Below are positions 2,350-37,032 of a stretch of 37,483 nt of DNA, piece after piece. The stretch's first letter is position 1. The number at the start of each line of letters is the position of its first letter. The position numbers and the translations under genes are program-made. The DNA is from a virus (lineage: Duplodnaviria > Caudoviricetes): the IMG/VR virus record IMGVR_UViG_3300046490_000013, positions 1-37,483 of that record; one strand, given 5' to 3'. The notes under the pieces were generated by a model. That model was not told where the DNA came from and ran no database searches. It saw only the letters and a program-made list of their open reading frames with translations.

Positions 2350-3915
2350 GTGACTGCACCCGACAACACGATTGCCACCATCGACGGCGGCGCGTCCCTC
2401 GTCGGTGAACCCAACGTCCCGGCCAAGACTCCAGAGGACTGGCTTCAGATCCTGGCACGCCGGCTCGACCTCCGACGCAACCACGTCAACCGGCTGCGGC
2501 AGTATGTGGACGGCAACGCCCCTCTGCCCGAAATGTCTGATGAGACAAAGGAAGCCTGGCAACGCTTCCAGCGCAAGAGTCGAACCAACTGGGGCGAACT
2601 GATCGTCTCGTCTGTGGTGGATCGCGTTGTGCCCAACGGCATTACGGTCAACGGCGACCCCAAGCACCCGAAAGCCAAACTGGCACAGAAGATCTACCGC
2701 GACAACCGGATGGACTCTGTCATCAAGGACTGGCTTCGAGCCGGCCTGACGTTCGCGCAGTCATACATGACGGCGTGGCGTGGCACCGACGGCAAGCCGG
2801 TGATCACTGCGGACTCACCGGAGACGTTCTGCGTCATCACCAACCCCCTCCAGAAGTGGCGACCCATTGCGGCACTGAGGGTTTGGCGTACAGAGGAACT
2901 GGCACGCGACTACGCGATGGTGTGGACCGACGGCGTGTGGACCCAATTCTCAAGGCCCACATACACATCGGTGGAGCACAAAGTCATCCCCACCCGGTGG
3001 CTCACCAACCTGGCCGAGGGATCATGGACGCGGATCGACACCGGAACCAGCATCGACATCCCCGTCGTTGTCTACAACAATCCTGACAGCGCAGGCGAAT
3101 TCGAGTACCACACCGACCTCATCGACCGCATCAACGCGGGAATCCTCGAACGTCTCGTCATCGTCGCGATGCAGGCGTTCCGGCAGCGCGCTCTCACGGG
3201 CGGAATGCTGCCAGAGAAGGACGAGCAGGGCAACAGCATCGACTACTCGAAGGTGTTCGCGCCGGCTCCAGGTGCGCTGTGGAATCTTCCCGCAGAGATG
3301 GAGATCTGGGAGTCGCAGCAGATCGACACCGGCCCGATCCTCAACGCAAGCAAGGATGATGTTCGCCAGTTGTCCGCTGTCACAAGGACTCCGCTGCCGA
3401 TGCTGATGCCCGACAGCGCGAATACCAGCGCGGAGGGCGCGAGGTCTGCGGAGAACGGCTACATCTTCCGATGCAAGGACAGGTGCAACGAGGCGAAGCT
3501 GGGCGCGATTGCGATCCTCGTGACCGCGCTCGCGATGGCGGGTGAGGAACTGGCCGACGACGAGACTCTCGATGTGAGTTTCGAACCGGTGGAACGGATT
3601 ACGCTCGCGGAGAAGTACACGGCGGCGTACCAGGCGAAGCAGGCCGGCGAGTCGATCAAGTCGATCCAGCGAAACGTGTTGGGGTACAGCCCAGATCAGA
3701 TCGCGCAGGACTCCATCGACCGCGCGCAGGATGCGTTGATAGCAGCCAGCTTTGCGCCGCCGCAGCAGCAAGCTCTGCCGCCGGGACAGAATCCGCAGAG
3801 GTCTGCGGAAGTGCAGCAGCGCAACGGATCTGCGCCGCCGGCTGCGAATGACCAACGGCCACAGAAGGTTCCGAGTCAGCGCGTCCCGGTGAAGCCGGCC
3901 AGTGGCAAGCCGTAA
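2350..3915 (+). CDS. Portal protein (SPP1 gp6-like) with Pro/Gln-rich C-terminal tail
   Basis: 521 aa after TerL. SRTNWGELIV, GEFExHxDLIDRIN and MQAFRQRA motifs of actinophage portals. Confidence 0.93.
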   Translation: MTAPDNTIATIDGGASLVGEPNVPAKTPEDWLQILARRLDLRRNHVNRLRQYVDGNAPLPEMSDETKEAWQRFQRKSRTNWGELIVSSVVDRVVPNGITVNGDPKHPKAKLAQKIYRDNRMDSVIKDWLRAGLTFAQSYMTAWRGTDGKPVITADSPETFCVITNPLQKWRPIAALRVWRTEELARDYAMVWTDGVWTQFSRPTYTSVEHKVIPTRWLTNLAEGSWTRIDTGTSIDIPVVVYNNPDSAGEFEYHTDLIDRINAGILERLVIVAMQAFRQRALTGGMLPEKDEQGNSIDYSKVFAPAPGALWNLPAEMEIWESQQIDTGPILNASKDDVRQLSAVTRTPLPMLMPDSANTSAEGARSAENGYIFRCKDRCNEAKLGAIAILVTALAMAGEELADDETLDVSFEPVERITLAEKYTAAYQAKQAGESIKSIQRNVLGYSPDQIAQDSIDRAQDALIAASFAPPQQQALPPGQNPQRSAEVQQRNGSAPPAANDQRPQKVPSQRVPVKPASGKP

Positions 3916-6823
3916 GTCTCGCAGCTTCGCCAACCCGGCCTACCGGGAAGATGTCCTCCGGTACTCGCCGGAAGAGGCGTACCGCAACGCCGTCCGAGAC
4001 GTGAATCACCGTGTGGTGCAATACGTTCAGCAGGCATACCGATCTGACCCGAGGTTCCTGACAAGCCAAGGTCATGTCGACCGGTTGACCGCGATGATGG
4101 CCCCGATGGTGCAGGCCGGCCAGGTGCAGGTTGCGGACCTGACCAACGCCCACCTGTCGACCCTGTTCGGCGTGAAACATCCACCCGCGCCCAACCTTTC
4201 GGAGTTCGCGCGCGAAGGAGTCACCGCCACAACGGAATTGGCCCGGCCGTTCTGGACGGCGATCAAGGCAGCGCAGGCAGGCAAGGACTTCGACGCCGCG
4301 ATGGCAGCCGGCGAGGCGAGGCTCACCAAGATGGTGCAGACCGACCTCCAGATGGCGAAGGTCCGACAGGCGCGAGACGTGTTGAAGGCAGGCGGAATTC
4401 AGCGGTATGCGCGGGTGACCGGCGGCACCGCGTGCTGGCTGTGCGAGATCGCCGCCACCCAGGTCTACTACACAGAGGATCTCCTGCCGATCCATCCCTC
4501 GTGCAACTGTTCAGTGCAGCCGATCCCCGACGGCGGCGAAGCGGAGATCCGCGACGGCTTCACTCCAGACGAGATCTTCCAGCATGCCACCGATCAAGTG
4601 AAGCTCATGGCTGGATTAGTGGAAAATGAAGCACCACTGGAGGATTACCAGAAGCTGGTCGAGGTCCGCGATCACGGCGAGATCGGCCCGATGCTGACCT
4701 GGAAGCACCAGAACTTCACCGGCCCAGGCGATCTGCCGGTTCCGCCGTCCAAGGAAGTACTGAATCACCAGGCCGGAATCGCAACTCCCGCAATGGAATC
4801 TGCGGATCGCCTTCGCATCAAGGCCGGCACCGACCCGGCCAGCACCGACCCGTGGTGGGTGAAAGAGGATATGCGCGAAGGTCAAGTGCCGCGCAGATTC
4901 GTCAACATCGAGATGGGCGCGCCCTACAAGTGGTATCCCGATTCCCCGTACACCACCAAGGAGGGGAAGTGGCTGGAGAACCGTCATCCCGGCCTCGTCA
5001 CCTCGTTCTCCAACATCGAAGATCCCACTGCCGTAAAGCAATTCGTCAACGGCTTCGACAAGATGGCGCAAAAATATCCCGAAGTCACGGTGACCGTGGT
5101 CAATTCTGACAATCTGTGGCAGGCCAACGCGCAAACGGAATATCACACGAGCGTCTCCACCGTTAATGGCAAGCTTCGCGGACTGGTGGAGAGCAAGGTA
5201 ACCCTGAACCGATCAGACTCAATTCCCGAGCAGGCCAAGAAGTTACGCGATACGGTGAAGGAATCTCCCAGCGTCTACGGTCAGATTTACCCGAACGGGA
5301 AGCACGACATCTTCTACGGGAACGCCGTCCATGAGTACGGGCACGTCATGGTTCACGCTGGTGACTACCAAGCAACGGAAGCGGAAGCCAAGCAGGTTCT
5401 CAAGCAGATGTGGAAGGCCCAGAAGGGAGAGCCAGGCGGCATCAAACTGTATGGCGAATGGTTCGAGTCGGCAGTCCCTTACAGCTACGCGAGAACCAGT
5501 ATCGGGGAGACGCTCGCCGAATGCTTCAAGGACGTAGAACTGAACGGCAGCAAGGCTTCTGACGTATCGAAGGCGATGCACAAGATCGTTGTCGACAACT
5601 ACAACAATCAAGTTCCGGTAATGGAACGCCGGAAGCCGTCCCGCAAGTCGCCGTCAAAGATCGTGGCTGAGAAGGAAGCAACGCGCGGCGAGAAGTATCT
5701 GGCCCAGTATCAGAAGAAGGCCGAGAAGTTCACGAAAGACGCAGAGGCGCAAGCGAAACGAGACGCCGCCGCAGCCAAGAAGGCAGCAGCAGCCGCAGCC
5801 AAAGCGGAGAAGGCAGCAGCCAAGGAAGCGCAGTTGGCAGCCGAGGCCGAGCTTCGAGGACCGCCGCCCGGTGAGACGCGCAAGTTGCTGCCCAACGGAG
5901 ATCCGTTGCCCGACAAGGCGGAACGTGTCTCCAACCTTCGCGCCCGAAAGCCCGAGCTCGTCGCCAACCAAGGTGCGCGCTACGAGGAACTGACCGATCA
6001 AGAGAAGATAAACGGAAGACGTTGGTACGCAGACCAATGCACCACCGCAGCCAACCAGGCCATCGATGGTGGGCATGGATTCACGCCGCTGCAAGGAGTT
6101 TCGGTCAACGGCGCGCTGTCGCCGCAGACCAAGTATCCGATCAACACGGCGCAAGGCGAGCGATACCTGAGTGTGCCGCGCGGAGAAGGTAATTCGGCCA
6201 TCCGCAAGATGCCGATCAGTGCCACGAACGCGATGGGAACCAACGCAGAGCGTGCCGACAGGCTTTCCACCGCAAAGACTTTCGATGAGATGCTGACCGC
6301 GCTCCACGAAAAGACCGACGCCAAGAAGTTGACCAACTACATCTCGTCGGCCTGGGTCAAGGCTCATCCAGAGGACATCGCTGACCGCGCAAAGCTTTTC
6401 ACCGTCGACACCTGGGCCGTCCGCACGATGGATCACTCGCAGCAAGAGATCCGCGACGTGTTGAAACTGCCGGCCGGCACCAGGCTGTCGGAGCGACAGG
6501 AGTCGCGCGGCGAACTGCTGCTCAGTTCGAAAAAGTATGGGACGCACTGGGAATGGAGCAAGGGCAAGGGGAAGTGGGTCGAGCTTCCCAACTATCGAGC
6601 GGTCGACATGATCGGTGACGACTACGATGTATTCCAAGAGGCCGGTGTCGAGGCGGCGTCGAAAGCATCTGAATTTGCAGGCACTTACGAGTCGCGGTTC
6701 AACGAGGCGACAGGGAGGTTCGAGACAGTGATGGTCGATGACAAGCCATCGAAGTGGCTGCCAGAGGACTACCAGGCCGCGCTGTGGGGCCAGATCGTTC
6801 CGGCGGCACCGCCCGGTGTCTGA
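3902..6823 (+). CDS. Capsid maturation protease / MuF-like minor head protein fused to a zincin-like domain and a C-terminal uncharacterised (possibly glycosylase-like) domain
   Basis: 973 aa between portal and scaffold. N-terminal ~280 aa has YARV...ACWLC...PIHPSCNC and ends HGEIGPML...FTGPGDLP. HEYGH at aa 477-481, ETLAE at aa 536-540, Ala/Lys linker, then WY...ALSPQ...K...TVDTWA...YQAALW. Confidence 0.85.
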   Translation: MASRKSRSFANPAYREDVLRYSPEEAYRNAVRDVNHRVVQYVQQAYRSDPRFLTSQGHVDRLTAMMAPMVQAGQVQVADLTNAHLSTLFGVKHPPAPNLSEFAREGVTATTELARPFWTAIKAAQAGKDFDAAMAAGEARLTKMVQTDLQMAKVRQARDVLKAGGIQRYARVTGGTACWLCEIAATQVYYTEDLLPIHPSCNCSVQPIPDGGEAEIRDGFTPDEIFQHATDQVKLMAGLVENEAPLEDYQKLVEVRDHGEIGPMLTWKHQNFTGPGDLPVPPSKEVLNHQAGIATPAMESADRLRIKAGTDPASTDPWWVKEDMREGQVPRRFVNIEMGAPYKWYPDSPYTTKEGKWLENRHPGLVTSFSNIEDPTAVKQFVNGFDKMAQKYPEVTVTVVNSDNLWQANAQTEYHTSVSTVNGKLRGLVESKVTLNRSDSIPEQAKKLRDTVKESPSVYGQIYPNGKHDIFYGNAVHEYGHVMVHAGDYQATEAEAKQVLKQMWKAQKGEPGGIKLYGEWFESAVPYSYARTSIGETLAECFKDVELNGSKASDVSKAMHKIVVDNYNNQVPVMERRKPSRKSPSKIVAEKEATRGEKYLAQYQKKAEKFTKDAEAQAKRDAAAAKKAAAAAAKAEKAAAKEAQLAAEAELRGPPPGETRKLLPNGDPLPDKAERVSNLRARKPELVANQGARYEELTDQEKINGRRWYADQCTTAANQAIDGGHGFTPLQGVSVNGALSPQTKYPINTAQGERYLSVPRGEGNSAIRKMPISATNAMGTNAERADRLSTAKTFDEMLTALHEKTDAKKLTNYISSAWVKAHPEDIADRAKLFTVDTWAVRTMDHSQQEIRDVLKLPAGTRLSERQESRGELLLSSKKYGTHWEWSKGKGKWVELPNYRAVDMIGDDYDVFQEAGVEAASKASEFAGTYESRFNEATGRFETVMVDDKPSKWLPEDYQAALWGQIVPAAPPGV

Positions 6824-7288: not shown

Positions 7289-7500
7289 TCGAGTCGTACT
7301 GGGCTGAGACAGCCGACGGCGAACGCCACCAATGCGCCACGCCATCGGCTGCATGGGCGATCCTCATCAACCTGAGAAAGCAGGGAAGGATCGTGTGCCA
7401 GAACAGGATTGACGACAACTCTCCCAGCACATGGACCGTTATCGACCGCGACCCAGACGGCTACTGGTCAGAGATACCGTCTCCGATTACCGTTGTGTAG
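7285..7500 (+). CDS. Small hypothetical protein (71 aa, MIESYWAE...)
   Basis: GTGA overlap with the previous gene; same frame as track ORF 7111..7500; shares a residue pattern with 6816..7034. Confidence 0.65.
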   Translation: MIESYWAETADGERHQCATPSAAWAILINLRKQGRIVCQNRIDDNSPSTWTVIDRDPDGYWSEIPSPITVV

Positions 7501-7526
7501 CAACAGTTTTGGTACGCTCGTCACAG

Positions 7527-7589
7527 TTTCATCCGCAGAGGTGAAAGTACCAGTCCCGCAACGGGATTGGATCGGCGTAACGCTGGAGG
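7527..7589 (+). promoter_or_regulatory. Three tandem hairpins in the scaffold leader, the last overlapping the GGAGG RBS
   Basis: TTTCATC-cgcaga-GGTGAAA (7527-7546), CCAGTCCCG-caa-CGGGATTGG (7550-7570), TCGGCG-taa-CGCTGG (7572-7586); RBS at 7585-7589. Confidence 0.6.
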
Positions 7590-7598
7590 CGAATTCCC

Positions 7599-10894: not shown

Positions 10895-10920
10895 TGGCCG
10901 GTTCCAACGCCTTTGGAGGG
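10895..10920 (+). promoter_or_regulatory. TGGCCGGTTCCA box overlapping a small hairpin that includes the start of the major tail RBS
   Basis: Box at 10895-10906; TCCAA-cgcct-TTGGA (10903-10917) pairs into GGAGGG (10915-10920). Confidence 0.55.
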
Positions 10921-10927
10921 CAGAATA

Positions 10928-11521
10928 ATGAGTGGAACTTCCACCTTGAAGGTCTACGCGGCAGAACCGTTGGCCACTGGGTCAATTCGCGTTGCGCCGC
11001 TGGGCACCGCAGCACCGACCGATGCGACCTCTGTGCTTCCCGGCACCTGGATTGACCTGGGTTACGTCGGCGTCGATGGCTTCGTGGAGAAGAACGAGCG
11101 CAAGACCGACAACAAGCGGTCGTTCGGCGGCAAGATCGTGAAAGTGCTTCAGTCCGAATACAATGCGAGCATCGAACTGACTCTTCTGGAGTCGACCGAC
11201 GCCGACACGCTGAAGGCCGTTTTCGGCTCCAGCAACGTCACCATTGTCGCGGCCACCTCGTCGCACGGCATCCAGATCACGGTGAAGAAGAACAGCAAGC
11301 GTCTTCCTCACCAGTCCTGGGTCATCGATACCGCCGACACCGAGATCGGGGCGTCCTACCGCAATTACGTTGCGGACGGCAAGATTTCGACCGTCGGTGA
11401 CATCAAGATCGTGCACACCGACACCATCGAATACAAGATCACCATCGAGGCGTTCGAGCCGGCGGGTGGCGGCGACAACATCGTCACCTTCATCGATGAC
11501 GGCCAGAAGCTGGCCAGCTAG
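10928..11521 (+). CDS. Major tail protein
   Basis: ATG 10928 after GGAGGG. APLGTAAPTDA...DLGYVGVDG...FGGKIVKVLQSEY...IVHTDTIEYKITIEAF motifs. Confidence 0.93.
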   Translation: MSGTSTLKVYAAEPLATGSIRVAPLGTAAPTDATSVLPGTWIDLGYVGVDGFVEKNERKTDNKRSFGGKIVKVLQSEYNASIELTLLESTDADTLKAVFGSSNVTIVAATSSHGIQITVKKNSKRLPHQSWVIDTADTEIGASYRNYVADGKISTVGDIKIVHTDTIEYKITIEAFEPAGGGDNIVTFIDDGQKLAS

Positions 11522-11525
11522 CAAA

Positions 11526-11615
11526 CTCACGGGCGGGTGTCTCCTGTAACCACCTGGAACCGGCCACGATTCACCCGCCCGTGGGCCGGCTCCAGATCAA
11601 GAAGGGTCCGGTTCC
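11526..11615 (+). promoter_or_regulatory. Structured intergenic element: 12-bp GC stem with a large loop complementary to downstream and distant boxes
   Basis: CACGGGCGGGTG (11528-11539) pairs with CACCCGCCCGTG (11572-11583). Loop contains CCTGGAACCGGCCA (11553-11566). GGCCGGCTCCAG (11584-11595) and CCGGTTCC (11608-11615) follow. Confidence 0.7.
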
Positions 11616-11618
11616 GAA

Positions 11619-11924
11619 TTGTTCACTTACACAACCGAATTCGAGGGCGAAGAGGTCGACATCGTCCTGCGTCCTTTCGGTGAGATGCCCGGCAGGATCT
11701 CGCGCCTGCATCGCGGCGATGTCGAGTCCCAGATGTGGGAAGCGTTCGAGTGGGGTCTGAAGGACTCGAAACAGCTTGCCATCATTGACGAGATGCCGAT
11801 GTCGGAGATCACCGACATGCTGTCGAAGTGGCAGGTCGACGCCGGGACAGACCTGGGAAAATCGCGTCCCTCCTCGACTACATCGAGGACGAAGACCACA
11901 GGGGCGCGCTCGAAGCTGACTTGA
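11619..11924 (+). CDS. Tail assembly chaperone (short form, gpG-like)
   Basis: 101 aa between major tail and tape measure; contains the slippery site at ...DLGK. Confidence 0.88.
   Translation: MFTYTTEFEGEEVDIVLRPFGEMPGRISRLHRGDVESQMWEAFEWGLKDSKQLAIIDEMPMSEITDMLSKWQVDAGTDLGKSRPSSTTSRTKTTGARSKLT
11855..11861 (+). other. Programmed -1 ribosomal frameshift site GGGAAAA
   Basis: CTG GGA AAA TCG in the chaperone frame; the -1 frame reads GGG AAA ATC GCG (GKIASLL...) and stays open to 12304. This is the canonical G/GT slippery heptamer. Confidence 0.9.
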
Positions 11925-12304
11925 TCAAAGCTGGTCTGCGCCTTCGTGATTGCCCATCGCCGGGATTCACATGGCGCGACTTGCAGGTCTTCATCGAGTA
12001 CCTCGACAACGACTCGTGTCTGGTTGCCGCCGTGTACCCAGATCGCGCCGGCTGGACGAAGCAGAACATGCTGCTCGCGTACCTCATCGACACTGCCCGA
12101 ATTCACTTGTGGCTCAACACAAAAGACGGGCATGAGAGGCGCAACTTCCCCGAGCCGATTGACCGACCGGGCATCGTGAAACCCGAGCCGCGCAAGGGTT
12201 CTAAGGTAAAACCGTTGCCTCTGAGTAAGATCAGAGAGATTCACGGCGCACAGCCAACCGGTGTCGAGCGGAAACGCAAGCTAGAGGCGATCTTTCGCAA
12301 TTGA
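11855..12304 (+). CDS. Tail assembly chaperone, frameshifted C-terminal part (gpGT-like, fused to the 11619 start)
   Basis: GALEADLI..GLRLRD...FTWRDL..F...W...NMLLA...P.PIDRPG motifs; no separate strong start. Confidence 0.88.
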   Translation, partial: GKIASLLDYIEDEDHRGALEADLIKAGLRLRDCPSPGFTWRDLQVFIEYLDNDSCLVAAVYPDRAGWTKQNMLLAYLIDTARIHLWLNTKDGHERRNFPEPIDRPGIVKPEPRKGSKVKPLPLSKIREIHGAQPTGVERKRKLEAIFRN

Positions 12305-18121: not shown

Positions 18122-19942
18122 ATGAGCCGCACCAACATCTACATGCCTGAGATGCCCGACAAGGTCATCGCCGCCGACGGTGTGCCAGACCCCAAGGCGA
18201 GCGCACTGGAGTCCTACCGATACCTCGAAGCCCGGCGGCAGACGATCAACGACTCGATGCGCCAGCGTCCTCTACTTCGCCTGTGGGACAAGGACATGAA
18301 GTACATCGGCCAGATCGCTCAGGAGAAGAGCGTGCAGGTCGAGGAAGTCATGTCCGACTCCGGTGGCGCGAGTGTCGTTGTGCGGCGCGACAACTGGCTG
18401 TCCGACACGATCCTGTACGACCGTCGCTCAGTCGAGGATCTTCACCTGACGCTGGACCCGAATCCGACTGCGCCGCACTGGAAAACGCGCTGGGGGGGAA
18501 AGATTACTGCGGTCAACGCCAAGCGCGGTGCCGACGGCCTTCATACGGTCGAGCTTGAGGCCGTCTCAAATCGGGAGCATCTGAAGCACATCCTTTGTGC
18601 CGCAACACCTTTCAGCCCTCCTGAGTTTCAGCCGCTGAAGATGTGGATGCTGCCCTGGAACTGCCGCACCGCGCTGACGATCTCGCTCTGGATCAACCTG
18701 TGCCGGCAGTACGAGCCGTTCCTTTCGATCCCGACGAACATTCTAAATCCCATGTCCTGGTTGACAACTCGCGTCGGCGACATCTCGCCCCTCAATTGGC
18801 CTGTGCAGCCTCAGTACATCAATCCGTTGACCGACGGCAGCCGCACCGAGATCTTCACGTCTCGATGGAGTGACTTCCACACGTCGAGTTCTGACATGCT
18901 GGACGATGCAGGCTGTATCTGGAAAGCGTATACCTGGCTGGAAGAAGATGAGGAGTCTCCGCATCCCGAGCTAGCAAACATCGGGACAGACATCCCCGCG
19001 TGGCTTGGCGGGAACATCATTCACGGCATTGCTGAGCGCATGACCCGGCCCAGTCGCAACTGTGTAATTTTGGCGGTCGAGGATAAGAGCGGAATCACCG
19101 GTCCCACAGGCACTTTGATCGATGGGCCGATAAATTTGATCGCCTCAACAGCAGACGATCTGATCACCGACACGCTCATTCCCGAATACGACGTGAACGG
19201 AGACGGCCAGACAGACCCGCTTATAGCAAAGTGGTTTGGGGTTGCGCCGGCACCTCCGTGGGTGGTGTTCCGCGATGGTGACTACAGCGCAATTGTGGAG
19301 TCGCAGAGGTCAATTCACGGCTCGACCGCGAGAAGCATTGTGGTAGGCGGTCATTCGCCGGGTTGGCTCAACGAGTTGCAGACGTTCGGGATCAAGTACG
19401 GCTTGTCCCAGATCCAAACAGCAATGGCCGATGGACAATTCCACGTCGAGGGGCCGGCTCCAGTCGGATCGGGTTTAGAGGAATGTTATCAAGGCCAGCT
19501 CGATGATATTGCGTTCAGCTACCAGAGATACACAGATCCGTTGCGCGCCTTGCAAGCTGGAGACTATGCGTTCCTCGAACTGTTCGCCCAAGGATCGGGC
19601 GGATCGGCCTACACCGTGTCCGGTGAACTGGATATCCGTTCGGGACAATGGAAGTCGCGTCCGTTCACCGCGTTCAAGGTGTCGGTTCGAAACGGCTTCC
19701 CGTGGGTGGCTCAACTCGACTTCACGTTGGGCGACAGATGCGCGTTCGAAATGGCGAATATCCTTCATGTAGACCAAGTTTCGGCCATTCGCTACCTGTG
19801 GGATAAAGACTCGCCCGTTAGAGTTGAACTGGCCATCGGCACTAAATCGCAGGAGGACGACCCCGTGGGCAAGGCAGTTCGGTCACTCGCCGGCTTCTGG
19901 AACATGTTCGGCGCGTTCGCCGGATCGCAGAGCCTGTTCTGA
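18122..19942 (+). CDS. Minor tail protein (baseplate hub / Tal-like)
   Basis: 606 aa. RPLLRLWDKDM, RWGGKI, VVGGHSPGWLN and DFTLGDR motifs. Confidence 0.88.
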   Translation: MSRTNIYMPEMPDKVIAADGVPDPKASALESYRYLEARRQTINDSMRQRPLLRLWDKDMKYIGQIAQEKSVQVEEVMSDSGGASVVVRRDNWLSDTILYDRRSVEDLHLTLDPNPTAPHWKTRWGGKITAVNAKRGADGLHTVELEAVSNREHLKHILCAATPFSPPEFQPLKMWMLPWNCRTALTISLWINLCRQYEPFLSIPTNILNPMSWLTTRVGDISPLNWPVQPQYINPLTDGSRTEIFTSRWSDFHTSSSDMLDDAGCIWKAYTWLEEDEESPHPELANIGTDIPAWLGGNIIHGIAERMTRPSRNCVILAVEDKSGITGPTGTLIDGPINLIASTADDLITDTLIPEYDVNGDGQTDPLIAKWFGVAPAPPWVVFRDGDYSAIVESQRSIHGSTARSIVVGGHSPGWLNELQTFGIKYGLSQIQTAMADGQFHVEGPAPVGSGLEECYQGQLDDIAFSYQRYTDPLRALQAGDYAFLELFAQGSGGSAYTVSGELDIRSGQWKSRPFTAFKVSVRNGFPWVAQLDFTLGDRCAFEMANILHVDQVSAIRYLWDKDSPVRVELAIGTKSQEDDPVGKAVRSLAGFWNMFGAFAGSQSLF

Positions 19943-30315: not shown

Positions 30316-30640
30316 TCCGCCGGCTACAGCGGAGCTTCCCGTGTCACTGGGGCGCGACATCATCCTCACGTTCCGCAATAAGGTTCCCGGCTCGAATCCT
30401 GTTGAGTACGTTGACTATCCGCTCAACGTGGCGGTGAAACTCGTTGTGGGCAAGGGACTTTCGGCCATCGAGGCACCCGCCGACATTCGAGGACACGAAG
30501 CCGTCTGCCGCATCGAGAGCGCAGCAGCCGATACCATCAAGGCCGGCGCGCTGTGGCGTGTAATCGTCTCTACCGCAGACGATCTCATCGATGATGATGT
30601 GCCGATGAACGGGACGGTGGTGAGATTCGATGGAGCTTGA
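30299..30640 (+). CDS. Tail-region protein (LtfC / collar-like)
   Basis: 113 aa. LPVSLGRD...DYP...A...IES..AD.I..G...W...GTVVRFDG pattern of actinophage fibre-attachment proteins. Confidence 0.65.
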   Translation: MANLFDPPATAELPVSLGRDIILTFRNKVPGSNPVEYVDYPLNVAVKLVVGKGLSAIEAPADIRGHEAVCRIESAAADTIKAGALWRVIVSTADDLIDDDVPMNGTVVRFDGA

Positions 30641-32575: not shown

Positions 32576-34222
32576 ATGGCCGTGATCAACAAGAACCTTC
32601 CGGTCCTCGACCGCAAAGAATGGGGGATGATGACGCCGGCTCCCGTCACCACGGCGGCTGCGATGTTCGTCATCCCGGCAGGATCTGGGTATCCCGATCT
32701 CTCGATGTACATCACGTCGAACACGGTGGCCTACTTGTACTCTCACGCGGAGGACGGCTGGACGCAGATCCCGTCACCGGCACTGGCCGGAACATTCGGC
32801 GCGGGTGCGTGCGGCGCGTACAGCGCGTGGTCCCAAACCTTCACGGCCACAGGCGGTTCCACCACCACGGTCACCGTCGCCGCCGCGACATTCAACCTGA
32901 CAGCGGCGCACGTTGTCGGCTCGACCATCGAATTCCTCAGTGCGGGAACAGCTACCGGACAGAGGCGCGTGGTCAAGGCCGTCGACAACAGGGGCGGCGC
33001 GGGCACCATCACGCTGCTGCTCGACTACGCAGTGGCCACGGCGATCCTCAACACGCATACGTTCCGCCTGTCCTCGGGCCGCTTCTTCGTGATGGGTGCC
33101 GGCACAACGGCTTCCGGCTCGTGGAAAGCCTTCGACGTGGCCACCCAGACGTGGCTTGCCTCGTTGCAGACCACCGGCCTTCCTGCCACCAACGGCACCG
33201 ACTCCAAGTGCATCTGGAGCGGACGGCCACCGGGCGTACTGGCCAACGGACTCGCAACCGCTGGCAGCACAACGACTCTCACCGACTCGACGCAGAACTG
33301 GGCGACGAACCAGTGGGCAGGTTTCTACGTCCTCACCGTCTCGGGCACGGGCGCGGGTCAGTGCCTGAAGATCCTGTCCAACACCGCGACTGCGCTGACG
33401 TTCGCCACCGCGTCGGCACCGGACACCACCACGGTGTACCAGATTCGGGGCAACGCCGCGCTGGCCGTCGGGAAGGCAACCTCTGGCAGCGCAACGACTT
33501 TGGTGAACACGGGCAAGACGTGGACATCGGGCCAGTGGGTCAACTACCAGTTGAGAATCATCAGCGGCACGGGTGCCGGCCAGATCAAGAAGATCACCGC
33601 GTCCGACGGCACCTCTGTCACCATCGGATCTGGTGCGACACTGGACAATACGAGCGTCTACGAGATCGAGCCGAACGAGGATCTGATCTATTTCGCAGGC
33701 AACAACGCAGTGACGATGTACACCTACTCGATCTCCGCGAACACCTGGGCCACACTGTCTCCCGGCGTGGCTCGCGCAGCCGCACCGACGACGGGCATGT
33801 GCCTCGACTTCATCGGCTGGAGCGAGGATGTCCAGTGGGGCAACGAGTCAACCATTCAGGACGGGCGTTACATCGTCTCGCTGCGTGGCTCAGCCGGCGC
33901 GGCCATCGACCGATACGACATCGTCGGCAACACTTGGCTGGCGTTGACGTATCCCGGTGCGACAGAGACGTTTACGACCGGGTCGAGCGCATTCCAGTCT
34001 GGCCGTTTCCTCTACATCCGCAAGGATGCGACCAACAGATTCTTCAAGTTCGATCTCGTCGGCAACGTGATGCTGCCGTTCAACACCGACCTGTTCCCCG
34101 ACGGCGCAGCACTTCTCGGCCAGAAGGTGTGGGTCAAGAACCTCGATCAGACTGAGCAGATCCAGTGGCTCTACGCGCTCGCCAACACCGGCACCGCCCT
34201 TCGAAGGATTGGAATCGTCTGA
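32576..34222 (+). CDS. Tail-associated protein: Kelch/beta-propeller-like blades with inserted Thr/Gly-rich repeat domains
   Basis: 548 aa. Blade-like YTYSISANTW, DRYDIVGNTW and KAFDVATQTW; repeated ATxGSxTTL...WxxxQW...SGTGAGQ units. Confidence 0.7.
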   Translation: MAVINKNLPVLDRKEWGMMTPAPVTTAAAMFVIPAGSGYPDLSMYITSNTVAYLYSHAEDGWTQIPSPALAGTFGAGACGAYSAWSQTFTATGGSTTTVTVAAATFNLTAAHVVGSTIEFLSAGTATGQRRVVKAVDNRGGAGTITLLLDYAVATAILNTHTFRLSSGRFFVMGAGTTASGSWKAFDVATQTWLASLQTTGLPATNGTDSKCIWSGRPPGVLANGLATAGSTTTLTDSTQNWATNQWAGFYVLTVSGTGAGQCLKILSNTATALTFATASAPDTTTVYQIRGNAALAVGKATSGSATTLVNTGKTWTSGQWVNYQLRIISGTGAGQIKKITASDGTSVTIGSGATLDNTSVYEIEPNEDLIYFAGNNAVTMYTYSISANTWATLSPGVARAAAPTTGMCLDFIGWSEDVQWGNESTIQDGRYIVSLRGSAGAAIDRYDIVGNTWLALTYPGATETFTTGSSAFQSGRFLYIRKDATNRFFKFDLVGNVMLPFNTDLFPDGAALLGQKVWVKNLDQTEQIQWLYALANTGTALRRIGIV

Positions 34223-34455
34223 TGCAGCAGACAGTTTGCGACCGCTGTCATGTGGTGGTTCAAGTGGCGACCGTCGATACTCCGGTGGCCGACATGCTCA
34301 ACTCCGTTGTCCACATCGAGTCGGTCATACCAGATGAGTTGGTGCCCAAGGTGATTCAGGCTTACCAGCAGATCGGCCAGACCTACAAGCCTCTGTCCAT
34401 CGACCTGTGCCCGGCCTGTCGCATCGTGATGCGCGCCGCGCTGAATCCGCTGTAG
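34222..34455 (+). CDS. Small putative zinc-binding protein (77 aa)
   Basis: TGATG overlap; CDRC near the N-terminus and DLCPAC near the C-terminus. Confidence 0.7.
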   Translation: MQQTVCDRCHVVVQVATVDTPVADMLNSVVHIESVIPDELVPKVIQAYQQIGQTYKPLSIDLCPACRIVMRAALNPL

Positions 34456-34459
34456 CGCA

Positions 34460-35920
34460 ATGGCTTTCGTCACGCGCTACGGCAACACGATCAGCGAGGC
34501 CGGCTGGCGCATGGTCGATGAGGCTGAGTGTGAATGGTCTGTCATCCCAGGATCGAACGCGGTGAGCGTCCAACTCCGAAAAGGCGTTCCCACAACGATT
34601 CTCGTGGCGTTCCTCGCCCGGTTCAACAAGATCATCGAGCCTCTGCGCGATGCCGACACGGGCGGCTGGACCCTGGTCAACGACGTGGGAACCAGTAACC
34701 ATCTCGCTGGCTGCGCTGTCGACGCGAATTGGTCGAGCCATCCCTTCCATGTGGCCGGAACCTACGGCGACAAGCTCGGCGCGCTGCGCGAACTGCTGGA
34801 TTCCTTTGGGGGATCGGTCTTTTGGGGAGGTGACTGGTCAGACCCCATCGATGAAATGCATTTTCAAATGGGCTGGCCTGAAGGCGACAAGCGTTACGAC
34901 GCGGTGATCAGTAGCCTTCTGGGTGCGGTGCCGGAACCGACTGAGCCAGTGGACAATCGGACGCGCTACGCTCGCGCCATCATCGCGGAGGGTCAGCGTC
35001 GAGGGATCTCTGAGCGCGGCATCGAGATCGCCCTGGCCACCGCGCTGGTCGAGTCCAACCTGACGATGTACGCCAATTCGTCTGTGCCGCAGAGCCTCAA
35101 CATGCCGCACGAGGCCGTCGGCAGCGACCACGATTCGGTTGGCCTGTTCCAGCAGCGGTGCCCGATGTGGGGGCCGGTCGAGATCCTCATGGACGCAACA
35201 CAATCCGCCGGCCTGTTCTACGACAAGCTCGTCAACCTCGAAGACGACAACGGGAACCACGACGATTACAACGACACATCAGAAAGCCCAGGCTTCTACG
35301 CCTATCGGGTGCAGCGGTGCGCCGAGGAATATGCCTACCGATACGATGAACGCTTCGATGATGCTGTCGCGCTCTACAATTCAAATGTCTTCAAACAGAA
35401 AGATGAAGGGTTCCTCATGGCATTGTCCGACGCGCAGCAGCAGGAGATCTACGACGCGCTCTGCGGCCAGCGTGGCTCGCGCTCGCCGCTGCACAGGCCC
35501 GGCGAGGGCACCATCGGCAACATCGAGGATCTCGAAGCGAATACCGATGGCAGCGTGCACATCCTGGTGCAGTACCTGCTGGGTGTGATCCTGCGTAGCC
35601 CAAGGACTTTGGAGGAACTGCGCGCCGTCGCGTCGACCGACGATCCCAAACAGTCCGGTGGCCGGCAGATCGCGCAGGCGATGCTCAACCTCATCGATCT
35701 GCATGACCAGGCACCCGGCCCGAATGTGGTTGTGGCGCAGGCTCCGATCACGCCGGCTTCGAGTCCCGTTGTGCTGCAACCGATTGCGTCGAATCCGCAG
35801 ACCTCTGCGGTTGTTCCCGGCGGTACGCTCGGTGATGACTTTGGGAAGCTGCACACTCAGTTAAGCTCTCTCACAGAGGCTTTGGGCGAATTGTCCACGG
35901 CGTTCGTCGGCAAGAAGTAG
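34460..35920 (+). CDS. lysA: Lysin A: N-terminal M15-like peptidase, central lysozyme/transglycosylase-like domain, C-terminal domain
   Basis: 486 aa. SNHLAGCAVD...WGGDW...DEMHFQ zinc peptidase motifs; ALATALVES...DSVGLFQQR lysozyme-fold motifs; directly upstream of holin. Confidence 0.92.
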   Translation: MAFVTRYGNTISEAGWRMVDEAECEWSVIPGSNAVSVQLRKGVPTTILVAFLARFNKIIEPLRDADTGGWTLVNDVGTSNHLAGCAVDANWSSHPFHVAGTYGDKLGALRELLDSFGGSVFWGGDWSDPIDEMHFQMGWPEGDKRYDAVISSLLGAVPEPTEPVDNRTRYARAIIAEGQRRGISERGIEIALATALVESNLTMYANSSVPQSLNMPHEAVGSDHDSVGLFQQRCPMWGPVEILMDATQSAGLFYDKLVNLEDDNGNHDDYNDTSESPGFYAYRVQRCAEEYAYRYDERFDDAVALYNSNVFKQKDEGFLMALSDAQQQEIYDALCGQRGSRSPLHRPGEGTIGNIEDLEANTDGSVHILVQYLLGVILRSPRTLEELRAVASTDDPKQSGGRQIAQAMLNLIDLHDQAPGPNVVVAQAPITPASSPVVLQPIASNPQTSAVVPGGTLGDDFGKLHTQLSSLTEALGELSTAFVGKK

Positions 35921-35929
35921 GAGTTAGAC

Positions 35930-36187
35930 ATGCCCAAGATTCAAGGTTTCCAGGTTGCCGGCAAGGCATGGGTTGCCCTGTTCGGTTCGCTGCTCACGTT
36001 CTTCGTCCCACTGGCAGTTCAGTATTCGGCGTCCCTGCCTGCACCGTGGCCGTCGCTCATAGGTGTCGTTGTCGCGCTGCTCACCGCCGTCGGTGTCTAC
36101 CACGCGCCGTATCAGCCTGTCGCGCCGCGCAATTCAGCCGGCCCTAGCTCGCCTACCTCGTCCAGTAATCCCTGGCCCACCTCGTAA
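35930..36187 (+). CDS. Holin
   Basis: 85 aa, two hydrophobic segments (KAWVALFGSLL...; IGVVVALLTAVGVY), AGGAG RBS, follows lysin A. Confidence 0.85.
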   Translation: MPKIQGFQVAGKAWVALFGSLLTFFVPLAVQYSASLPAPWPSLIGVVVALLTAVGVYHAPYQPVAPRNSAGPSSPTSSSNPWPTS

Positions 36188-36193
36188 TCCCTT

Positions 36194-36223
36194 CCGCCGC
36201 AGCCGGTTCCAGGGCGACGGTGG
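36194..36223 (+). promoter_or_regulatory. Leader hairpin enclosing a GCCGGTTCCAGG box and pairing into the RBS region of the next gene
   Basis: CCGCCG (36194-36199) can pair with CGGTGG (36218-36223); box at 36202-36213; ATG at 36230. Confidence 0.45.
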
Positions 36224-36229
36224 TGAACA

Positions 36230-36724
36230 ATGGAGTTTCCCAGGTGGATTCGTAGGGTCGACCGGTATTTCGGGCAGGACGGCTGGAGTCTCGTCGCGTT
36301 CCAGCCGATCCTCTATTTCTTCTTGTGGGGCGCGGCAATTCGGCTGTGGATCGACGCCGACCCGCCGCCCAACTTCGATGACATCATCACCCAAGGCTTC
36401 TACCCGGTGTGGCTCTCGCTTGGGATCATCGGCCCTCCGCTCGCGCTGCTGTCCTGGTTCCTCATCCAAAAGTGTTACGGCAAGTGGACTTTCATCGGCA
36501 TGTGGGTGCGCTGGGCTGCCGACGTGACGATGTTCATCGCCGTGCTGACCTACCACCTGACCAACGTCGCCAAGGCTGCGACAGAGTCTCGCATCTACTC
36601 GCGCTACATCGTCGGCGCGACACTGGTGTTCATCTTGTGCCTCATCGTCCGCGATGCCTGGGTCATCTTCATCACCGAGCGTCTCGCGATGCGGATTCAT
36701 CGAGGTGAACAGTGGCCGAGTTGA
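36230..36724 (+). CDS. Four-TM membrane protein of the lysis cassette
   Basis: 164 aa with four hydrophobic stretches; follows holin. Confidence 0.8.
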   Translation: MEFPRWIRRVDRYFGQDGWSLVAFQPILYFFLWGAAIRLWIDADPPPNFDDIITQGFYPVWLSLGIIGPPLALLSWFLIQKCYGKWTFIGMWVRWAADVTMFIAVLTYHLTNVAKAATESRIYSRYIVGATLVFILCLIVRDAWVIFITERLAMRIHRGEQWPS

Positions 36725-37032
36725 TTCCCGCGCTGTTGACCGGTGGCCTGGGCGCGGCACTGGGTGGCATCGGAACCGCTGTGATACAAAGCTTTTCGGG
36801 CAAGGGAGTCTCGCGCGCCGAGGCGGCAGACCGGGTCACCAATGCCGCCGGTAACCTGGCCGACCGCCTCGACAAGGAGATCGCGCGCCGCGACACCGAG
36901 ATCCAGCGCATGCGAAAAGCGTTGTCCTCCTTGACCGAGGCCATCGAGGATCTGCTGCCGATGGTGCAGTCTCAGGAGATCCGCACTAAGACCCAGGCCG
37001 CGATCCACGAAGCGAGACTGGCTTTTCGATGA
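36712..37032 (+). CDS. Single-TM plus coiled-coil membrane protein of the lysis cassette
   Basis: 106 aa. N-terminal Gly-rich hydrophobic helix then heptad-like region; GAGGT RBS. Confidence 0.8.
   Translation: MAELIPALLTGGLGAALGGIGTAVIQSFSGKGVSRAEAADRVTNAAGNLADRLDKEIARRDTEIQRMRKALSSLTEAIEDLLPMVQSQEIRTKTQAAIHEARLAFR

Follow-up and report, generated by a model that had tools for sequence, protein, structure and literature searches.

Introduction

Long-range translational coupling is exemplified by the Min Jou interaction of phage MS2 and by infC-rpmI-rplT of Escherichia coli; enterobacteria possess trans-acting small RNAs derived from 3′-UTRs, and plant RNA viruses use 5′-3′ kissing-loop bridges (3′CITE). 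In phages, a 12-bp stem-loop behind the major tail gene of cluster O mycobacteriophages, with a T-run after it, was read as a terminator in the available text of PMC4351075. According to the available text of PMC5009743, the G/GT frameshift of phage lambda sets tail-chaperone amounts, with a 30:1 ratio described as crucial, and both the tape measure and the major tail protein are bound by these chaperones. In Gordonia phages, lysis cassettes commonly encode proteins with four transmembrane segments alongside further membrane genes, as described in the accessible portion of PMC9671378.

We analyzed a 37,483-nt stretch of viral DNA, hereafter the window, in which a hairpin loop between the genes for the major tail protein (MTP) and the tail assembly chaperone (TAC) is complementary to boxes at both genes and to one distant box in the lysis cassette. 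As in the MS2 and infC-rpmI-rplT systems, a distant strand would mask a downstream start and link its use to an upstream gene, whereas here the masking strand would be the loop of an intergenic hairpin rather than coding sequence, with up to three competing partners. Like the enterobacterial 3′-UTR small RNAs, an exposed loop behind an abundant gene complements a distant leader; unlike them, the distant target is not conserved, and a separate RNA is hypothetical here. A loop behind a gene that pairs with the gene's own 5′ leader, with compensatory changes, also recalls the 3′CITE bridges, except that the message is a bacterial polycistronic phage mRNA, there is no cap-factor binding, and extra partners are found at the next gene. 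The hairpin has the same position as the cluster O stem-loop in the available text of PMC4351075, but it has a large loop, co-varying partners, and, in the window, no T-run. Chaperone amounts would be controlled as in lambda, and a slippery site is present in the window too; however, the lambda frameshift sets G:GT (PMC5009743, available text), whereas the tail element would act at initiation, setting TAC relative to MTP.

A literature search on the element and its parts found no description, most subscription papers being outside reach. The available text of PMC10690425 does not contain the word "tail", and six of its supplement files contain no loop motifs; its model files could hold this RNA. 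The tail element is thus presented as a widespread, apparently undescribed RNA pairing element, a variant of long-range start-site masking. We favor, with modest confidence, the reading that the box flagged in the lysis leader is the complement of a conserved pre-TAC hairpin loop that serves as a cis RNA switch on tail-gene translation, the lysis copy being incidental.

Results

Genomic setting of the window

The window corresponds to the genome arm that carries the head, tail, and lysis genes of a mycobacteriophage-like siphovirus, with PHROG matches spanning it from terminase to lysin A. The closest cultured relatives of its major tail (tube) protein are found in Gaia, Nebkiss, LilSpotty, and DS6A (52–57% identity), and the runs best matching the window are peat metagenomes; the 18 runs listed include no RNA dataset, which carries no information on expression. 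The MTP gene (10928–11521, +) encodes 197 amino acids with matches to phrog_117 (E 2e-47) and PF25681. It is followed by the G/GT TAC gene (11619–12304, +), in which frame 1 ends at 11924, both frames match phrog_1326, and a slippery GGGAAAA at 11855–11861 would be the site of a putative frameshift. The lysis cassette contains lysin A (34460–35920), a holin-like gene (35930–36187), a membrane protein gene (36230–36724, +; 164 amino acids; phrog_5552), and an open reading frame 3′ of the latter (36712–37032). The membrane protein, here called 4TM, has four hydrophobic segments by eye and two by a crude scan.

Several other features of the map were recorded. The first gene (148–654) is at the place expected for a small terminase and carries a minor tail protein label (phrog_226); 3902–6823 encodes a 973-amino-acid head maturation protein that carries DUF7178 at its C terminus, an unusually long fusion; and in the 310 nt before the scaffold gene (7289–7598) no long ORF was called. 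A small open frame seems to occupy the gap 5′ of lysin A (34222–34455). The sequence GACGGTGGTGA occurs twice, at 30613–30623 and 36216–36226, each time directly 5′ of a start codon, and is probably a Shine-Dalgarno (SD) variant. Gene 10 of KJ567043.1 is labelled a tail assembly chaperone, yet it is a major tail protein (57% identity), as its RefSeq copy states.

A hairpin loop behind the MTP gene is complementary to boxes at the MTP and TAC starts

The initial annotation had drawn attention to a box in the 42-nt gap between the holin-like and 4TM genes. We confirmed that this box, GCCGGTTCCAGG at 36202–36213 (+; −28 to −17 of the 4TM leader), is the exact 12-nt reverse complement of 11553–11564, although its function is doubtful. 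A 10-mer within it was said to occur only here and at 10897; both exact copies exist, but two near copies at 11584–11595 and 11606–11617 had been overlooked. On both strands together there are three exact copies (10897+, 11555−, and 36202+) against 0.14 expected, a number reached in 0 of 100 shuffles, the figure being post hoc. Two of the three are part of the tail element, and with the two near copies at the tail locus, four of the five box or anti-box sites fall in a stretch of 730 nt at the MTP gene.

The center of the element is a hairpin, S1 (11526–11585, +; z −4.2), with a covarying 14-bp stem (11526–11539 with 11572–11585) and a 32-nt loop. The loop contains the anti-box, A (11553–11566, +), which is preceded by ACCACC at 11549–11554, kept in close relatives. 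Since the ATG at 10928 is the more likely start of MTP, the box in the MTP leader, B1, extends over 10895–10906 (+; −33 to −22) and pairs with A over 12 nt; B1 covaries with the loop in relatives. A predicted small hairpin containing the MTP Shine-Dalgarno lies 3′ of it (10909–10921, +), and many relatives have a similar one. B2 (11584–11595, +) is directly behind the S1 stem, overlapping its last 2 nt in the window, and has one mismatch to A here and none in the related locus L006. B3 (11606–11617, +), with eight Watson-Crick pairs, lies between the TAC Shine-Dalgarno and the TTG start.

Pairing of A with B2 would give either an H-type pseudoknot with S1 or an alternative hairpin; when the 5′ arm of S1 is left out, A and B2 form a simple hairpin of −23.7 kcal/mol. 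After opening costs, net pairing is −12.7 kcal/mol for B1 and −0.7 kcal/mol for B3. An intrinsic terminator was considered for S1 and rejected: the GC stem is present, yet no U-tract follows it in the window, and a T-run is found in some relatives, e.g., Gaia. No covariance model of Rfam 15 matched anywhere in the window with an E value of 1 or below.

Covariation of loop and boxes among phages

We collected 175 MTP loci including that of the window, of which 144, those with complete flanks, became 73 after reduction at 90% identity; 31 were left out owing to short flanks or partial matches. For each, the 95 nt after the MTP stop was compared with its own 70-nt leader, requiring at least 10 Watson-Crick pairs and no hairpin calling. 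Such pairing was present in 35 of the 73 non-redundant loci, with 27 distinct boxes. For comparison, shuffled leaders paired in 18 of 2190 cases, coding windows in 4 of 540, and cross pairs in 115 of 1190. In one of the 35 (L036) the pairing lies outside the loop, and the remaining 38 loci are without a 10-nt B1. The own leader was the best or tied partner in only 22 of the 35 rows, as related loci have boxes in common.

When 17 carrier loci picked by hand were aligned blind with MAFFT, pairing in the A:B2 helix was 88.7%; two-sided changes occur at 7 of the 9 pairs of this helix and at 10 of the 11 pairs of the S1 stem, so that two crossing helices both covary. The paired fraction of the whole structure was reached in 0 of 500 shuffles of this alignment, a control that ignores kinship. 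A separate blind alignment of loops and leaders gave a paired fraction of 0.73 against a permuted maximum of 0.67, with the window's class misregistered. At least 27 paired changes map onto the MTP tree of 31 selected loci, where their coincidence follows from the selection of the loci for complementarity; this tree and a register-fixed table of loci chosen in the same way show box variety only. B1, B2, and B3 all have their complement in the loop A, and all of these change together across phages. The proposal that the 3′ loop of the major tail message engages in RNA pairing is therefore strongly borne out by covariation for the MTP-leader copy and the two TAC-start copies, and not for the lysis copy.

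A protein-binding repeat would co-vary too, and for that reason deviations of the copies from the perfect complement were counted. In the 53 of 73 loci with a pattern-recognized core, C>T deviations numbered 18 and G>A deviations 4 (p 0.003; kin are not independent, and three cores were mis-anchored). The C>T excess keeps G:U pairs, which favors RNA pairing and not a DNA operator. Recognition of all copies, in DNA or RNA, by a phage protein that co-changes with them, which the initial annotation had offered as its alternative, would account for covariation of copies within a genome, and mycobacteriophages are known to carry phage-specific repeats close to starts (PMC4351075, available text); however, the G:U-keeping deviations, the single antisense copy, placed in a hairpin loop, and the small number of copies, clustered as they are, make this explanation highly improbable. 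Known classes of DNA operator repeat (stoperator, SAS, and the cluster O repeat) were likewise rejected, the window having too few copies (three exact and two near) and the G:U bias being present.

The element in cultured phages

The element was found in 13 of 15 cultured phages examined, the ZoeJ loop having been assigned by hand. These phages, among them Gaia, LilSpotty, ZoeJ, Aroostook, Jabbawokkie, Horus, and BritBrat, are phages of Mycobacterium, Gordonia, and Rhodococcus, and the element also lies behind the MTP of another family (contigs G431 and G434). All 13 carriers have 7–12 nt of complement (B2 or B3) in the TAC leader, no more than 45 nt from the TAC start, and 8 of the 13 have an MTP leader complement of 11–15 nt. 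Natural rearrangements are informative. ReT1v-1 has a 2.1-kb tail-spike gene between MTP and TAC, and Horus has a small gene there; in both, the hairpin is still 5′ of TAC and a 12-nt match to the MTP leader is kept. Bipper, whose MTP and TAC genes overlap, lacks both the hairpin and the box, and in nine further loci without the element, several of which have a start codon close after the MTP stop, the best match was 5–8 nt. Across 34 loci, the S1 stem begins 2–40 nt after the MTP stop (median about 7), distances that are borderline for melting of the stem by a ribosome at the MTP stop.

The main rival to control of TAC is an effect on MTP itself. The element would then act mainly on the MTP message, A:B1 closing it into a loop and thereby protecting the message, guiding its processing, or causing ribosomes at the MTP start to be recycled or blocked, with B2 and B3 secondary. 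A:B1 is the longest and cleanest helix in the cultured phages that have it and survives the 2.1-kb insertion, and by eye the pyrimidine-rich 5′ half of many loops could cover the MTP SD. Against this, ZoeJ, Aroostook, Emalyn, and prophiGD11-2 have no B1, and DS6A has a short one, while the TAC-side copies persist; the hairpin, moreover, travels with TAC, not with MTP. We regard a role mainly on the MTP message as unlikely. The complete phage L008 (G003) has the loop and MTP-leader box without B2 or B3, so that TAC-side partners can be lost; as the reverse case, it suggests that both uses may exist. In Nocardia, MTP-like genes of six loci (L091, L094–L097, and L099) keep a leader box with no matching hairpin behind, and no chaperone start is evident in the 150 nt viewed; these are possibly prophage remnants.

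The copy in the lysis leader

The CCGCCG/CGGTGG hairpin proposed earlier for the 4TM leader (36194–36224, +) is indeed the predicted fold, with the box in its loop and the SD-like GGTGGTGA (36219–36226) covered by its 3′ arm, but its stability is not above that of shuffles (z −1.28; equally low in 55 of 500). The leader and its 12-nt match are identical in contigs of four of four runs, one of which is probably the source sample. By duplex energy, the box ranks first among 33 leaders of the window, at −29.5, barely past the coding background of −28.9 (3661 windows scanned). As in a small RNA with its seed in a loop, 12 nt of the loop, whose opening cost is 2.8 kcal/mol, are complementary to the 4TM start region. 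The loop ACCACC, kept in 9 of 10 listed loci of this box class, is the exact complement of the 4TM SD.

The box could be a real, lineage-specific target at which the 4TM leader is bound in trans by the abundant MTP message or by a trimmed form of the hairpin, tying lysis-protein synthesis to tail output; opening of the leader hairpin would activate, and extension of the pairing onto the SD would repress. The chance of a 12-nt match in a distal leader is about 0.2–1% per genome: it occurred in any of 31 distal leaders for 33 of 20,000 shuffled loops and in 2 of 635 foreign loop-genome pairs, and Markov models of order 2–6 gave 0.002–0.010. Net pairing after opening costs (−13.6 kcal/mol) is comparable to the −12.7 of B1, and the box has B1-like geometry and the first rank among window leaders, besides its place in a predicted loop and the SD complement in the adjoining ACCACC. 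Two orthologous cassettes have gaps of 3–4 nt in place of the 42-nt spacer, which was thus gained or kept in the window.

A second distal case may be gene 19 of Gaia, whose start region carries a 12-nt complement of Gaia's own loop (L243, 17693–17704) and looks like a duplicate of the TAC start region; no second leader match of this kind was seen in the 13 other cultured genomes (p 0.04 by the foreign-loop null). Gene 19 is a minor tail gene 3′ of two HNH genes.

Relatives did not share the match. In the 13 cultured carriers, 0 of 75 lysis-cassette leaders exceeded 8 nt, with position used to assign unlabelled genes; in five prophage contigs whose lysin could be placed there was no lysis-leader match of at least 10 nt, and contig G435 had none in its lysis leader. 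Contig G431, with its own loop, B1, B2, and B3 and an orthologous lysA-holin-4TM-orf36 cassette, is the only one with both element and cassette, and it is distant (39% identity in the membrane protein and a different MTP family); its holin-4TM junction is a 3-nt gap with no box and a best match of 4 nt. The proposed trans link to the lysis gene thus did not pass the check set in the initial annotation: the relatives compared, none of which shares both the same loop and the same cassette, keep no co-varying box in their lysis leaders. Close 4TM homologs are encoded on contigs of 27.7, 64, and 65 kb (P0122, P0125, and P0133, with 75%, 64%, and about 66% identity by their clusters).

Further searches did not change this. 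Searches for viral loci with the 4TM protein found 0, 1, and 0; a leader pattern search gave one match, by chance, inside a gene; and a 17-nt loop pattern gave 15 matches, the two at tail loci being already in the set. Among 401 Mycobacteriaceae genomes, three had weak 4TM matches, with no box upstream by eye, and four further runs contained one relative across lysin and holin and none over the leader among the pieces listed. The 4TM homologs of Marvin (gene 55), G005, and G028 have no box, and G432 has a 4-nt gap before 4TM; these are not covariation tests because G005 and G432 are without the element, the Marvin intergenic region is different-looking, and G028 has no MTP match. As a shared target, the gene after the large minor-tail gene gave matches of 6–8 nt in a few of about 24 genomes. 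Loop complements of 6–8 nt were also seen at starts in L252 (gene 18), L251 (genes 22 and 29), L248 (gene 19), and G024 (near 44660); these are small minor-tail or pre-lysin genes, and the matches may reflect common Met-Ala-Ala starts.

The window was chosen because of the match. An exact 12-nt duplicate of B2 at 19452–19463, inside a minor tail gene, indicates that such coincidences occur in the window; an extra core 12-mer is expected 0.05–0.14 times anywhere on the strand, and the one further leader match among some 30 genomes or fragments screened is within chance on the Markov figures. With the leader hairpin not significant, the duplex energy not beyond coding background, and no match in the relatives, a lineage-specific lysis target is possible but improbable, and the lysis copy is more likely a coincidence than a working link.

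Discussion

The loop likely tunes TAC translation. The TAC start region is complementary to an upstream strand, and this complementarity is conserved by covariation. Pairing of A with B3 would hide the TAC start, which would be released when A is taken up instead by B2 or, in phages that have it, by B1. B1 has the best net pairing among the tail sites of the window, so that TAC would be made mainly from messages with an intact MTP leader, and a message that had lost the leader would yield less chaperone. Chaperone output would be tied in this way to tail-tube output where MTP and TAC are about 95–135 nt apart and not abutting. The crucial chaperone ratio in lambda (PMC5009743, available text) provides a reason for control of the chaperone start. 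The weak net A:B3 pairing in the window is a point against such a switch, and it is from sequence that we infer the direction of the effect, masking or enhancing, on TAC or on MTP.

If the lysis copy worked, virion assembly would be linked to lysis through RNA, a connection of which we met no description. One phage loop would then be a multi-target regulator, acting on TAC translation in cis and on the 4TM leader in trans, 24.6 kb off, with lineages recruiting different distant targets, such as Gaia gene 19, and lysis timing would read out the amount of tail made; we consider this doubtful. For the tail locus itself, the hairpin behind MTP should not be presumed to be a plain terminator. The balance of tail tube and chaperone is known for the G/GT frameshift, we found nothing on its control at the chaperone start, and for this the tail element offers a concrete mechanism.
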